Below are positions 18-4,030 of a DNA stretch of 61,288 bases, in pieces. The stretch covers positions 62,001 to 123,288 of the IMG/VR virus record IMGVR_UViG_2923073944_000003; one strand, 5' to 3'. Position numbers and translations under genes: made by a program. Under the pieces are notes generated by a model. The model was not told where the DNA came from and searched no databases. It saw only the letters and a list, made by a program, of their open reading frames with translations. Every line of letters starts with the position of its first letter. Within the stretch, counting starts at the first letter, position 1. Source of the DNA: an uncultured virus (IMG/VR IMGVR_UViG_2923073944_000003). Lineage: Duplodnaviria > Heunggongvirae > Uroviricota > Caudoviricetes.

Positions 18-1067
18 TTATTTAGCTAAGGCTTCTTCTAATTTAATATCTAAATCTGTATTTTGATTAAGATTAGTAATAGCAATAACCTTTCCAACGG
101 AGGTCATTCTAAACTCAGGAAGAGTAGTTCTGTCCCATATTTCATTTACTTTACGGATACTTTCATATCTGCTTATAGCCAAACTTATTTCATTTTCTGA
201 TTTAAGATGGTTTTTATAAAAATCAATAATCTTACTTTGATGCTGAATAAACACTGAACCCAAAATTTCAATTTTATCTAATAAATGAAAAAATCCCTGA
301 ACATTGAACTTATATAAATTATTTTCGTCTGAAAGAGGCGTAACCATTTCTTTTAGGATATTTGAATCTAGATAAGGAAATGTCTTAAGATAGTGCTCAA
401 GATCAAAACCAGCTTGAAATATCCCACCGTATGCCATGTGAATCAAATAAGAAAAATGCTCATTTTGACCTTTTGTTAAGTTCTCGCATTTACAATACTC
501 TAAATGCATCATCTGGTTTAATGAAGGGATTTTTTTTGGCAGAAACGGCACTGCATATTTATTTAACAAACAATTTAATTCTCCTATTGTTTGGCACGGA
601 AAAGTTACTTCAGATAAAAGGAAGTGCAGACTTAGTAAATTAATGTGTTCAGTATTTAGCTTAGAAGAAACTTCTATTGCTTCATTGAGAACTACCTGTT
701 TAAACGATCTATCCTTTTCTTTAGTCCGTTCAACTAATAATTCTTTTAACATCTGGTATAGATATTTTTCGCCAGACCTTACAAAATCCCTTTGTGCTAC
801 ATAAATTATATATTGCAAGTCAGGATCAGAAAACCGATTAGGTAAATTGGGATTCTTAGAAAATTGTTCTAGAAAACCTTCAATTAAAGTATTTGCTCTT
901 TCTGTAGCAATCTTATTAGCTTCTTGAGAAAGCTTATAAAAATTTTCTTTGAAAATATCGTTACATATTTGTTTTGCATCTCCATATGATAGCCCCGTTA
1001 CATGTACAGTCTCTCCTTGGATATTGACGGAGTGATCTCCTCCACTTTGCGAGCAAGTCTTTTTCAT
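18..1067 (-). CDS. LPO_1073/Vpar_1526-like protein (349 aa) with N-terminal QSGGDHSVNIQG motif
   Basis: ORF with SD (AAGGGTGA); N-terminal 'IFKENFYKLSQEA...DPDLQY...AQRDF' resembles the LPO_1073 family as recalled. Confidence 0.7.
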   Translation of the reverse strand: MKKTCSQSGGDHSVNIQGETVHVTGLSYGDAKQICNDIFKENFYKLSQEANKIATERANTLIEGFLEQFSKNPNLPNRFSDPDLQYIIYVAQRDFVRSGEKYLYQMLKELLVERTKEKDRSFKQVVLNEAIEVSSKLNTEHINLLSLHFLLSEVTFPCQTIGELNCLLNKYAVPFLPKKIPSLNQMMHLEYCKCENLTKGQNEHFSYLIHMAYGGIFQAGFDLEHYLKTFPYLDSNILKEMVTPLSDENNLYKFNVQGFFHLLDKIEILGSVFIQHQSKIIDFYKNHLKSENEISLAISRYESIRKVNEIWDRTTLPEFRMTSVGKVIAITNLNQNTDLDIKLEEALAK

Positions 1068-1274
1068 CTATTTATCACCCTTGTTTTTAAAATCATTTAT
1101 TTCTACATTACACCCTTGAATATTAACTGAATTGTCCCCGCCTTGTTGATTATATTTTGTATCATGAATGTCTTCCTTTTTTGTTTTCTTCCACTTTAAG
1201 CATATCCAACCTACAATAGGTAGACCGACACCGCTAAAAATCCACTGAATATTATTATATAAAAAGTCAATCAA
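1068..1274 (-). CDS. Small membrane protein (68 aa): N-terminal TM helix, basic linker, C-terminal QQGGDNSVNIQG motif
   Basis: TTG start with SD AGGAAGG; hydrophobic WIFSGVGLPIVGWICL; stop abuts next start codon. Confidence 0.8.
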   Translation of the reverse strand: MIDFLYNNIQWIFSGVGLPIVGWICLKWKKTKKEDIHDTKYNQQGGDNSVNIQGCNVEINDFKNKGDK

Positions 1275-1316
1275 AATCTAACCTTCCTTTCTTGAATACG
1301 AGTTAATTTCATCCGT

Positions 1317-1448
1317 TCACAAGGTATTCCATTCAACATATTCAAATCGCTGCTGATAAAGGTCTTCCAGGATTGTGGCCCATTCAATCCATCCATCCGC
1401 AACAATGCTTTTTTTCTCTCCATCCTCAATCCATTCAATCCAGTACAC
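1317..1448 (-). CDS. yopG: YopG-like 43-aa protein MYWIEWIEDGEKKSIVADGWIEWATILEDLYQQRFEYVEWNTL (missing from the ORF track)
   Basis: SD AGGAG then GTG at 1448, TGA at 1317-1319; follows yopE-yopF as in SPbeta. Confidence 0.8.
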   Translation of the reverse strand: MYWIEWIEDGEKKSIVADGWIEWATILEDLYQQRFEYVEWNTL

Positions 1449-1459
1449 CTGAACACTCC

Positions 1460-1675
1460 TCACCTAGTAATAACTTCAATTTGCCTTATGGCAGAAGTGG
1501 CTTTAAACTCCGTATGTAGCTCATTTGCGATCACTAAAGCTTCTGACATTGTAGTGAACTTAGAAGCGCCATGAAGCCCCTTAGATGTCTTATAACCACT
1601 TCCATCTAATTTAAATGACTTGAAGTAATCATCATTTTCAAATTGAATAACAAAAAAGTTATCGATAACCGGCAT
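1460..1675 (-). CDS. yopF: YopF-like phage protein
   Basis: 71 aa, resembles SPbeta YopF; synteny. Confidence 0.75.
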   Translation of the reverse strand: MPVIDNFFVIQFENDDYFKSFKLDGSGYKTSKGLHGASKFTTMSEALVIANELHTEFKATSAIRQIEVITR

Positions 1676-1677
1676 AG

Positions 1678-1929
1678 CTAACTCCTCTTCAGCAGACCAG
1701 CAATTTTTATGGCCAGTGGCAGCAATCCAATTAATATGTAAAACACCATGATATTTATTTTATTCTTAAAGAACAGTTCAATCATATTCTGCTCCATACC
1801 TGGTGAAAATGAATCAATCAGTTCCTGTTTAAATTCTTCATCGTAAACCTGATCAACAAATAAAGCTTTAAACCCAGATAGAAAGCCAATACCCAGCCAG
1901 AGTATTAAGAAATATGCTATTCCAATCAA
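1678..1929 (-). CDS. yopE: YopE-like membrane protein
   Basis: 83 aa, two hydrophobic segments, VDQVYDEEFK motif; SD GGAGG. Confidence 0.75.
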   Translation of the reverse strand: MIGIAYFLILWLGIGFLSGFKALFVDQVYDEEFKQELIDSFSPGMEQNMIELFFKNKINIMVFYILIGLLPLAIKIAGLLKRS

Positions 1930-2719: not shown

Positions 2720-4030
2720 TTAGTCTTTAACAACTGATCTATATCTAATTAAAAAGGCCTCTAGTCTCCCCAACTCTGTTTTATGGTAATCATGATGAGT
2801 CCCTTCGGTTTCTGGAAATAATGGATTTTTGAAAGGAAGCGATTCTGGTGAGTCCTTAAGACTTTGGAACGTTTCCCAAGCTACGGGGTCGTATATTTGG
2901 AATGTATCGCCCAATAACGAACAATGTCCACTGTCTTTTCTTTGCCTAACAGGAATAGCATAATTCTTATATAGCTTGTAATTTTCAATTGTTTGTCTGT
3001 TAATCTTAGAAGACAAATAACAGATTCCCCAGTATTCCGAAGACTTTGACTGTTTAACCCATTCAAGTAAAAATTGAGAAATTATATATTCTGGTTTAAA
3101 AACATCGCTTTTATTTTTCACTCTTATTGTACACACAGATATTAAAATCCATGTCATCAAGTAATCATCAAATTTATAATCACCACTAAGCTCAAAAAAT
3201 TTTTTAAGGTTGTCAGCGAGTTCTTTAGGTGAAATACTCAAATTTAAAAGTTTCAATTCATCATTTTCAAGGTGAAAAACTGAAGTATAGATACTTTCAT
3301 AATCAGGACTCTCTATTTCTTCCCAACAAACCTGAGCCGAGCTACCAAGGTAAAGACAAGGAAATCCAGGTATACTAAAACGTTGTGTTTTTATAATACC
3401 CCTTATCTCAAAGGGAATATGAAACATGTCCTCCTTAGAAGAAAGAACTTTAGTTTTACTAGACCTCATTCTAAATAATTCATTAGGAATACGTATACTA
3501 TCAATATTGTATAAGAGGTTCTTAATATTTACCTCTTTTGAAAACTCCTCCATCCCCTTTGCGAATTCAACATAGGCCTGATGCACAGATCCGTCTAAGT
3601 ATAAATCAATTGTTTTAGTAATTTGTTTTGCAAAAGACTCAATCTTGGTTATTTTTAAAGGGTTGAATGATGTTGTAGGTGGAAGCTTAGACAATTCTGC
3701 AATATATTCTGAATATAAATTCTCCATAAAAACATCTAAATCTTCACCCGTTCTTTCTATTGGAATATCGCATTTATCAATAATAAAACTTAATATTGGA
3801 TATATTTCAATAGCCCATTCAATTAAAATGTCTAACCTTTCTTTATTTGAAAAGGTATTTATATTAATTTTTTCCTCCTTAATAACATCATTGGTGTTTT
3901 TGTCTGTGAATTCAGGTTTTACTGTTAACTCTTTAAAAATATCAAATGCAAGCTCTTTCAAAGAATCATTAATTTCCTCATGTTTCGATAAGTCTTTTTT
4001 TAGCCTTTTAGCTTTTCTATACAAATCCAT
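2720..4030 (-). CDS. RES-domain protein (putative NAD+-consuming toxin/defence effector)
   Basis: RFSIPGFPCLYLGSS..CWEE, FKPEYIISQFLLEW, GICYLSS, NYAIP motifs typical of RES-family proteins; SD AAGGAG. Confidence 0.7.
   Translation of the reverse strand: MDLYRKAKRLKKDLSKHEEINDSLKELAFDIFKELTVKPEFTDKNTNDVIKEEKININTFSNKERLDILIEWAIEIYPILSFIIDKCDIPIERTGEDLDVFMENLYSEYIAELSKLPPTTSFNPLKITKIESFAKQITKTIDLYLDGSVHQAYVEFAKGMEEFSKEVNIKNLLYNIDSIRIPNELFRMRSSKTKVLSSKEDMFHIPFEIRGIIKTQRFSIPGFPCLYLGSSAQVCWEEIESPDYESIYTSVFHLENDELKLLNLSISPKELADNLKKFFELSGDYKFDDYLMTWILISVCTIRVKNKSDVFKPEYIISQFLLEWVKQSKSSEYWGICYLSSKINRQTIENYKLYKNYAIPVRQRKDSGHCSLLGDTFQIYDPVAWETFQSLKDSPESLPFKNPLFPETEGTHHDYHKTELGRLEAFLIRYRSVVKD

Follow-up and report, generated by a model that had tools for sequence, protein, structure and literature searches.

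The DNA considered here (the window: the whole stretch of 61,288 nucleotides that was analysed, positions 62,001 to 123,288 of IMG/VR virus record IMGVR_UViG_2923073944_000003, an uncultured Bacillus phage of the Caudoviricetes) carries close to its first position two abutting genes on the minus strand, the first for a 68-residue membrane protein and the second for a 349-residue protein of the LPO_1073/Vpar_1526 family (Table 1). Both proteins contain a copy of one short motif, the small protein near its C-terminus and the large protein at its N-terminus. Since this motif is short, rich in glutamine, asparagine and glycine (Q/N/G-rich) and common to both proteins, and since the pair turns up again in distant bacteria and at known hotspots of anti-phage genes, the cassette stands out as a strong candidate new defence system, with the motif as the presumed route of signalling.

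Table 1. Features of the gene pair in the window and genes next to the pair at other loci (loci numbered L).
Locus	Position	Strand	Feature	Basis
window	18-1067	-	gene, 349-residue LPO_1073/Vpar_1526 family protein, proposed sensor/regulator	NF045477 match
window	36-995	-	LPO_1073 domain, residues 25-344, mostly alpha-helical	NF045477 envelope; secondary structure of the model
window	999-1049	-	motif copy 2, QSGGDHSVNIQGETVHV, large protein residues 7-23	
window	1068-1070	-	small gene's TAG stop; ATG of the large gene follows at once in the same frame	same layout in two IMG/VR contigs
window	1068-1274	-	gene, 68-residue single-pass membrane protein, TTG start, proposed effector	open reading frame list; aligns with 21 small partners of other loci
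window	1076-1082	-	putative Shine-Dalgarno-like AAGGGTG, 8 nucleotides 5' of the ATG of the large gene, within the end of the small gene	read by eye
window	1098-1148	-	motif copy 1, QQGGDNSVNIQGCNVEI, near the small protein C-terminus	
window	1191-1250	-	predicted transmembrane segment, small protein residues ~9-28 (...IQWIFSGVGLPIVGWICLKW)	sequence; 'W(I/L/V)FSG(I/V)G' helix common to partners
window	1282-1290	-	putative Shine-Dalgarno-like AAAGGAAGG, 7 nucleotides 5' of the TTG of the small gene	read by eye
window	1317-1929	-	yopE-, yopF- and yopG-like genes, conserved left border of the variable slot	SPBc2 homology
L006			pair between tail-region and holin/amidase genes	
L011			pair near ParA/ParB genes	
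L012			pair adjoins integrase and ThsA-like SIR2 protein	
L013, L017			pair adjoins transposases	
L016			pair adjoins Zot and DUF2726 genes, filamentous-phage-like region	
L036			pair 5' of terminase	
L038			pair near Rha regulator	

Two genes and one motif

How firm is the match between the two copies? An earlier note on this DNA had pointed to both open reading frames and both motif copies, and had argued from codon usage that the match does not stem from a recent DNA duplication; frames and copies were found again where it had placed them, and the codon argument holds. The two 17-residue copies are identical at 11 of 17 residues and at 32 of 51 nucleotides, and the 11 identical residues are encoded by different, synonymous codons in seven cases and by the same codon in four. 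The best ungapped 12-mer between the small and the large protein has 10 of 12 residues identical, as compared to a maximum of 8 of 12, attained three times, when both proteins were shuffled 2,000 times. A six-frame scan of the whole phage genome of 123,288 bp with a loose form of the motif returned only these two copies. From the codon differences, the shuffles and the genome scan it therefore follows that the motif match is real and held at the protein level; a chance match and a recent DNA duplication were both rejected on codon differences, nucleotide identity and shuffles.

The small protein consists of a short N-terminal tail, a hydrophobic helix, a lysine-rich stretch, the motif and a short charged tail. 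Because lysine and arginine residues come after the transmembrane segment, its C-terminal motif should face the cytoplasm according to the positive-inside rule. No Pfam family was found for it, and a word-based search with it returned at similar length only its own 99%-identical cluster (7 sequences) and nothing among longer proteins. The Shine-Dalgarno-like site inside the end of the small gene suggests a coupled yet separate initiation of the large gene.

The LPO family and its partner genes

The large protein scores 220.1 bits against NF045477, well above the curated cut-off of 45 (E 3.7e-65), which makes it a member of the LPO_1073/Vpar_1526 family; it also matches phrog_19542 (E 3.4e-19), and its homologues carry PF28206. 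In an exhaustive phmmer search the family amounted to 1,832 cluster representatives at E <= 0.001 and 174 at E <= 1e-30. The AlphaFold2 model of the large protein (116 rows) is mostly helical, with a predicted local distance difference test score (pLDDT) of 93 and a predicted template modelling score of 0.86. As the earlier note had stated, the protein lacks an NLR-type P-loop: a Walker A pattern is absent, Pfam gave no match to NACHT or NB-ARC, and no relative could be recognised by fold. Foldseek with the LPO model against the PDB reached a best E of 0.29, VIA-align wide reached a best Z of 8.2 with designed helical bundles, a range that is uninformative for helical models, and the ESM Atlas returned only the family itself and no match once the family was skipped. 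Such fold searches without a relative do not establish the modelled LPO fold as new. Moreover, six residues, His188 and Cys194 (within H-L-E-Y-x-x-C), Arg114, Glu129, Lys136 and Trp311, are nearly invariant in 116 family members and could form a catalytic or ligand-binding site.

The N-terminal motif is widespread in the family. A strict pattern of it was found within the first 140 residues in 131 of the 150 top family representatives (numbered P below), with the start mostly at residues 5-15. Among the other 19, most have a degenerate copy by eye, P0127 has nothing recognisable, and P0051, P0091 and P0108 have a different N-terminal domain. Tandem pseudo-repeats of the motif unit are found at the N-terminus of P0035 and in a protein of locus L041.

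If the motif serves communication between two proteins, homologues should be accompanied by an upstream small membrane gene that carries it as well. This check, proposed in the earlier note together with one for co-variation, came out nearly always in the affirmative. In the genome_contigs collection, in which the window's large protein as single query found no relative, loci were found with patterns of a close 4-row alignment, one of these patterns being the motif itself. All 18 loci have, directly upstream on the same strand, a gene for a membrane protein with the motif after its helix or helices, and the end of this gene reaches 1-14 nucleotides into the LPO gene; the loci include Marinobacterium, Marinobacter, Clostridium, Metabacillus, Streptomyces (three loci), Streptodolium, Hoeflea, Saprospiraceae, Syntrophobacterales, Sulfuricurvum, Vibrio, Alteromonas and others. 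The metagenome_contigs were searched with patterns independent of the motif. Of the 15 loci found there, 11 are paired (several being near-duplicates), two are helix-motif-LPO fusions (L031/L032) and two are cut at the contig end, so that the pair is present in 11 of the 13 assessable loci and the remaining two are natural fusions. The viral_contigs held two loci identical to the window, and the pair was present in all three non-identical loci. When three samples, each of about 400 species genomes, were searched with the domain profile, the family was found, beyond the centre genomes, in 1 of 400, 1 of 399 and 2 of 400 genomes, and three of these four loci have the pair. The fourth, L053 (G158:C42:1-2816), encodes a divergent LPO_1073 member (E 8.5e-44) in which the motif and the upstream partner are absent together.

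Within these loci the pair and the motif are kept across phyla and the membrane part is exchangeable. Most partners have a single helix of the type 'NKEW(L/I/V)FSG(I/V)', those of Streptomyces, Saprospiraceae, E. coli and L054 have two membrane helices, and L037/L038 have another helix; the motif is kept throughout. In E. coli an 81-residue two-helix motif protein is followed by an LPO protein of 285 residues. Of the genome_contigs partners, 17 of 18 are 61-120 residues long. The partner in Hoeflea (L010:2423-2977, plus strand) has 184 residues, in which helix and motif are followed by about 130 extra residues that are helical and match no Pfam family. Outside the pairs, a 'NKEW(V/L)FSG(I/V)G' helix stands at the C-terminus of a TIR_2 protein (L040:1387-2196, minus strand) and at the N-terminus of a protein in which motif-like pseudo-repeats and TPR repeats follow (L041:508-1767, minus strand). 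This helix has the look of a membrane module that is shared promiscuously among proteins of conflict systems.

The two copies of the motif also co-vary. Windows of 23 residues were anchored on the conserved glutamine, and every small copy was compared with every large copy. For 15 clade representatives (less than 60% identity in the large protein) the mean identity was 9.40 of 23 within pairs and 7.73 of 23 between pairs, and none of 50,000 permutations reached the observed value. With 19 pairs the values were 9.42 and 7.63 of 23, and the observed within-pair identity was reached by none of 100,000 permutations (by one of 100,000 with BLOSUM62). Without the three most divergent pairs (L036, L037, L056), the remaining 16 pairs gave 9.50 and 8.38 of 23, and 72 of 100,000 permutations reached this value. 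It should be noted that the anchors were chosen by hand, the two least certain being among the dropped pairs, that the last four pairs were added without a redundancy check, and that ancestry and composition can inflate such tests. Oddities common to both copies of a pair illustrate the co-variation: QING in L036, GDNA in L056, NVQAGRD in L054, an alanine before (V/I)Q in E. coli and SVNIQG in the window.

Additional hints at the role of the LPO domain come from family members with other architectures. In five of the top 150 representatives a helix is fused before the motif (P0095, P0105, P0128 and P0146 by hydropathy, P0062 by eye). In P0051 and P0108 a domain of about 130 residues stands in the place of the motif, with the LPO domain after it. 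Residues 11-160 of P0051 match the HNH part of a Cap5-type SAVED protein (PDB 7rwm_A, E 7e-11), its N-terminal domain matches the HNH endonuclease 9om4_A (E 3e-8), and in PADLOC P0051 matches CBASS endonuclease effectors (E 1.9e-19) and PDC-M68A (E 1.8e-27). The N-terminal domain of P0091 has a weak HNH_3 match under the cut-off. Because a Cap5-like HNH nuclease replaces the motif in some relatives, the LPO domain sits, by analogy, where SAVED sits in Cap5, which would be the position of a sensor or regulator. The N-terminal slot thus appears to hold the effector in three forms: 1) a nuclease; 2) a fused membrane helix; 3) a bare motif that matches a separately encoded helix. NLR systems are described as alternating likewise between 'all-in-one' and two-component forms (Dyrka et al., bioRxiv 10.1101/2020.01.06.895854).

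The genomic neighbourhood is of the kind in which defence genes are found, and the position in the slot after yopG, given in the earlier note, holds. The three open reading frames directly upstream of the pair are homologues of SPBc2 yopE (60% identity), yopF (52%) and yopG (81%) and are probably co-transcribed with it. Directly downstream and just left of the window lies the gene of a 379-residue homologue of the SPbeta arbitrium receptor AimR/yopK (G000:C1:60694-61833, minus strand; L058:5695-6834) with 39% identity to SPBc2 yopK (E 6e-89). In SPBc2 the slot between yopG and aimR holds yopH (annotated as superinfection exclusion B/SieB family), yopI and yopJ, and the pair of the phage fills the same slot. 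This slot is variable among relatives, because three RNA-library runs, each of a different study, yielded contigs that match positions 1327-2000 of the window at 90-99% and then continue with three different sequences; position 1327, at the 3' end of the yopG-like gene, marks a putative recombination boundary. The RNA-library contigs cover 1327-2000 only, and low-depth fragments of the pair in one run (X1) are probably DNA. The only promoter-like site nearby on the strand of the pair (1988-1961) is a weak match to the consensus, and neither a terminator-like site nor a convincing promoter of its own was found for the pair.

In E. coli the pair lies between gpA (replication endonuclease) and gpQ (portal) of a P2-like prophage, an interval described as a defence hotspot in P2 (Rousset et al., PMC9122126), and adjoins the 3HP genes Hp1-Hp2-Hp3 (PADLOC E 1e-157 to 1e-248). 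Among 5,426 complete genomes, 7 carry this locus, and in 6 of these at least 80% of it is covered. A tblastn search of phage and plasmid collections gave one phage record and two plasmid records. In E. coli strain H3 (L049:3945-6695, minus strand) the complete 3HP system stands beside the pair together with a DinI-family gene. Further upstream in the window, the minus strand encodes at 2720-4030 a yopC-like protein of 436 residues, the DNA of which is 86.6% identical to SPBc2 yopC (in RefSeq a RES domain protein); the protein scores 22.4 bits against Pfam RES, just under the cut-off of 23.2, and matches phrog_7835. On the opposite, plus strand a 60-residue open reading frame with two CxxC pairs (zinc-ribbon-like) lies at 2000-2182 between the yopC-like and yopE-like genes.

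A possible amyloid-type signalling module and its alternatives

What kind of motif do the two proteins share? It spans about 20 residues; in the small protein it follows the basic stretch and falls within the final ~30 residues, in the large protein within the initial ~25. In 23-residue windows of 15 pairs, as compared to a background composition, glutamine is enriched 3.1-4.1 times, asparagine 2.3-3.6 times, glycine 2.0-2.2 times and isoleucine 1.2-1.4 times, valine stands at 0.8 times in the small and 1.4 times in the large proteins, and proline (0-0.1 times) and leucine (0.2 times) are rare. Lysine is not depleted on the side of the small proteins (1.2 times), the windows taking in the lysine-rich flanks. 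Bacterial amyloid signalling motifs are described as running to about 25 residues, with Q, N, G, V and I over-represented and K, P and L under-represented, and RHIM, PP and BASS3 as sharing the central core G-phi-Q-phi-G (both Dyrka et al., bioRxiv 10.1101/2020.01.06.895854). Position, at the C-terminus of the putative effector and the N-terminus of the putative receptor, and composition thus fit the published motifs. Counted by hand, 11 of 19 small copies have a core N-(I/V)-Q-x-G, as do 4 of 19 large copies, the first glycine of the published core being asparagine in most.

These observations are best accounted for by the following scheme. The LPO_1073-domain protein would be a cytoplasmic sensor or regulator that responds to infection, and the small protein a minimal membrane effector of one or two helices and a cytoplasmic tail. 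The Q/N/G-rich motif of about 20 residues that both contain would be their means of communication, through a homotypic co-assembly of beta-strands of a cross-beta, amyloid-like kind. Briefly, once triggered, the sensor would cluster and its N-terminal motifs would nucleate the assembly of the C-terminal motifs of the effector, provided that the signal runs in this direction; assembly would then bundle the membrane helices and could thereby damage the membrane. That the pair is in this sense an abortive-infection or exclusion module of phages and mobile elements, with the LPO sensor acting on the membrane effector via homotypic beta-assembly of the motif, is in our estimate evenly balanced between right and wrong. 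Amyloid-like templating is the most likely form of motif coupling, and the computations made here do not separate templating from stable pairing.

Several observations weigh against this scheme. Cross-beta structure of the motif was not indicated by any computation made. The large protein was modelled with residues 1-27 as coil (block pLDDT 73-76). The Pfam RHIM model, a check named in the earlier note, matched none of 22 small proteins at E <= 10, although the HMMER filters drop many weak matches; because the core is partly matched and Pfam RHIM is not, the motif, judged by sequence, resembles the RHIM/PP/BASS3 class without belonging to it. The two proteins were also modelled as one read-through chain with the TAG taken as glutamine (AlphaFold2, unpaired natural rows). 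In this model residues 17-36 of the small protein are helical (block pLDDT about 87), the region of the small motif (residues 37-69) stays under pLDDT 50, the second motif is coil (about 71-76), and neither paired strands nor motif-motif pairing are seen; this model speaks neither for nor against a contact between the motifs. Natural helix-motif-LPO fusions retain a single copy of the motif, so that it seems to be of use even where no second protein carries a copy, and this would also fit a simple linker or oligomerisation element. Furthermore, the co-variation is moderate: of the 19 small proteins only 9 match their own partner best by identity, and cross-compatibility seems likely for most pairs. 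Many loci are two-gene inserts flanked by housekeeping rather than defence genes. No fold relative in Foldseek, VIA-align or the ESM Atlas points to what the LPO domain senses, and in 9 LPO proteins, that of the window included, the LPO domain matched no PADLOC model, so that the family comes with no earlier evidence of a defence role. Of the amyloid-signalling proposal of the earlier note, then, the pairing, the co-variation, the position and composition of the motif and the genomic context stand, while the RHIM model and the single-chain model lend it nothing.

How else could a matching motif in two neighbouring proteins be explained? The alternative that fares best, itself unlikely, is a static tether, in which the two copies form a stable, constitutive beta-strand heteromer that anchors the LPO protein to the membrane, the LPO protein being the active part and no templating taking place. 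Co-variation is compatible with any direct contact, the overlaps of stop and start suggest stoichiometric co-translation, and there are natural fusions with a single motif between helix and LPO domain (P0062, P0095, P0105, P0128, P0146, L031/L032), of which the tether would be the non-covalent equivalent. An exchange of the membrane part for an HNH nuclease, however, fits an effector better than an anchor, the small proteins are little more than helix and motif, which is what an effector working through clustering would look like, and a Q/N/G-rich, proline-free composition is typical of stacking beta-arch motifs.

It could also be imagined that the small membrane protein is toxic alone and that the LPO protein neutralises it by binding its tail via the motif, so that the toxin is released when the LPO protein is lost or inactivated during infection, or when the element is lost. 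We consider such a toxin-antitoxin-like arrangement decidedly unlikely. An overlapping two-gene operon on mobile elements, with the small membrane gene first and a matching motif for specific interaction, would suit it, but the helix-motif-LPO fusions would put toxin and antitoxin into one chain, the single chains of HNH and LPO domain resemble effector-sensor proteins such as Cap5, and the family matches assign neither role.

There is only a slight chance that the cassette has no part in defence and serves its carrier element in lysis timing, lysogeny control or membrane stress. Its neighbours aimR in this phage, tail and holin/amidase genes in L006 and terminase in L036 would agree with such a role; against this, chromosomal islands without phage genes carry the cassette too, a 3HP system is its neighbour in the P2 gpA-gpQ hotspot, CBASS-type effectors are matched by the HNH variants, and the family is found in about one per 200-400 sampled species genomes, as sporadically as is typical of accessory defence genes.

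Very improbable is a third-party tag, that is, a motif that serves as recognition site for a protease (host or phage), chaperone or membrane-targeting factor acting on both proteins. Both proteins have the short, conserved motif at an exposed end, and its family-wide consensus is strong, which might be read in this way, yet pair-specific changes occur in both copies, the motif is dropped where an HNH domain is fused, and a horizontally mobile cassette in very different hosts makes a host factor unlikely.

Finally, that the pair is an artefact, a single gene split by a nonsense mutation or read through at the TAG into a helix-motif-motif-LPO chain, is hardly credible: both open reading frames of the window do share one frame with the TAG alone before the ATG, and helix-motif-LPO fusions occur naturally, but these fusions hold one motif and not two, the genes lie in different, overlapping frames at the 18 genome_contigs loci, upstream frames with a stop of their own are found also at metagenome, viral and profile-found loci, the identical TAG is present in two IMG/VR contigs and in the 99%-identical cluster of 7 sequences, and the large gene has its own ATG and Shine-Dalgarno-like site, as has the TTG of the small gene at normal spacing.

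Relation to known systems and meaning

Sensor-to-effector signalling through the motif, the reading preferred here, has its closest precedent in Bab/Agp (BASS11), an amyloid-signalling abortive-infection system of E. coli for which fibrils, prion behaviour and defence are reported (bioRxiv 10.1101/2024.11.07.622273). As described there, Bab/Agp also consists of adjacent genes in a prophage defence hotspot, with a small effector that has an N-terminal hydrophobic helix and a C-terminal motif and a larger sensor, not an NLR, that carries this motif N-terminally. In contrast, the Agp sensor is of the TPR-GreA/B-C-PIN type and not an LPO_1073 protein, and Bab has a Babybell/Bell helical domain, whereas the effector here would be a transmembrane helix only, so far as its sequence tells. 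Relative to Bab/Agp, the sensor family and the minimal effector are different, and the motif, probably different as well, may form a new family.

The Bell/NLR pairs with BASS1-10 and fungal HET-S/NWD2, as they are described, are likewise encoded by neighbouring genes that often overlap, with the motif C-terminal in the effector and N-terminal in the receptor. The motifs of the BASS pairs are also Q/N/G-rich and about 20-25 residues long, and 'all-in-one' effector-receptor fusions exist among them. The pair in the window shares with such systems the adjacent genes and the placement, composition and co-variation of the motif, but has no NLR-type NTPase (NB-ARC or NACHT) and no repeat domain. Its effector consists of hydrophobic helix and motif only (68 residues), a Bell/HeLo-like helical domain being considered on the sequence alone. 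Moreover, BASS pairs are reported from multicellular bacteria in the account of Dyrka et al., whereas the pair described here occurs in unicellular bacteria and phages of several phyla. The Cap5 HNH-SAVED effectors of CBASS (PDB 7rwm, 7rwk) have the HNH domain N-terminal to the sensor, as P0051 and P0108 do; the window protein lacks a nuclease, LPO_1073 is all-helical and unrelated to SAVED by the searches run, and no cyclic-nucleotide synthase is near the pair. The SPbeta gene yopH (SieB family) takes the same position between yopG and aimR in SPBc2 but is a single gene followed by yopI and yopJ, and no sequence relation to the pair was seen.

Among the PADLOC candidates PDC-M43 comes close. 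The first ~57 positions of PDC-M43A, which cover helix and motif, are matched by 17 of 22 small partners (best E 6e-9), the small protein of the window (positions 2-57 of 203, E 1.5e-6) being one of the 17. The rest of the 203-position profile is unmatched, and a comparable C-terminal extension is found only in the 184-residue Hoeflea protein, which may be what the profile describes. No other PDC-M43 model matched any protein scanned with PADLOC, and the PDC preprint does not name PDC-M43 in its main text; there may be an overlap between this PADLOC candidate and the module of the small protein. Full-text literature searches, with most subscription journals outside their reach, gave no description of an LPO_1073 pair.

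What would follow for bacterial immunity? LPO_1073 pairs may represent widespread and so far unrecognised amyloid-signalling immune modules of unicellular bacteria and phages, in which a new sensor fold, not an NTPase, would act as template for a RHIM-like (N-phi-Q-phi-G) cross-beta motif on what would be the smallest cell-death effector known, one membrane helix bearing a prion-like tail of about 20 residues. This wider claim is put forward tentatively, as a possibility about which we are rather doubtful. At present amyloid signalling in bacterial immunity rests on Bab/Agp as the sole studied system, as its description has it, and on NLR-linked motifs in multicellular bacteria. If the claim is true, the principle would extend to Bacillota, Pseudomonadota, Actinomycetota and Bacteroidota and to temperate SPbeta-like and P2-like elements, with a new sensor domain and a minimal effector. 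An effector of one helix and one motif would make the mechanism unusually easy to dissect, and the HNH 'all-in-one' relatives would mean that one sensor can drive either nuclease or membrane killing. The promiscuous 'NKEWLFSGIG' helix, present on TIR and TPR proteins too, would thereby be explained, and a family of about 1,800 clusters that now has a placeholder name only would gain a function.

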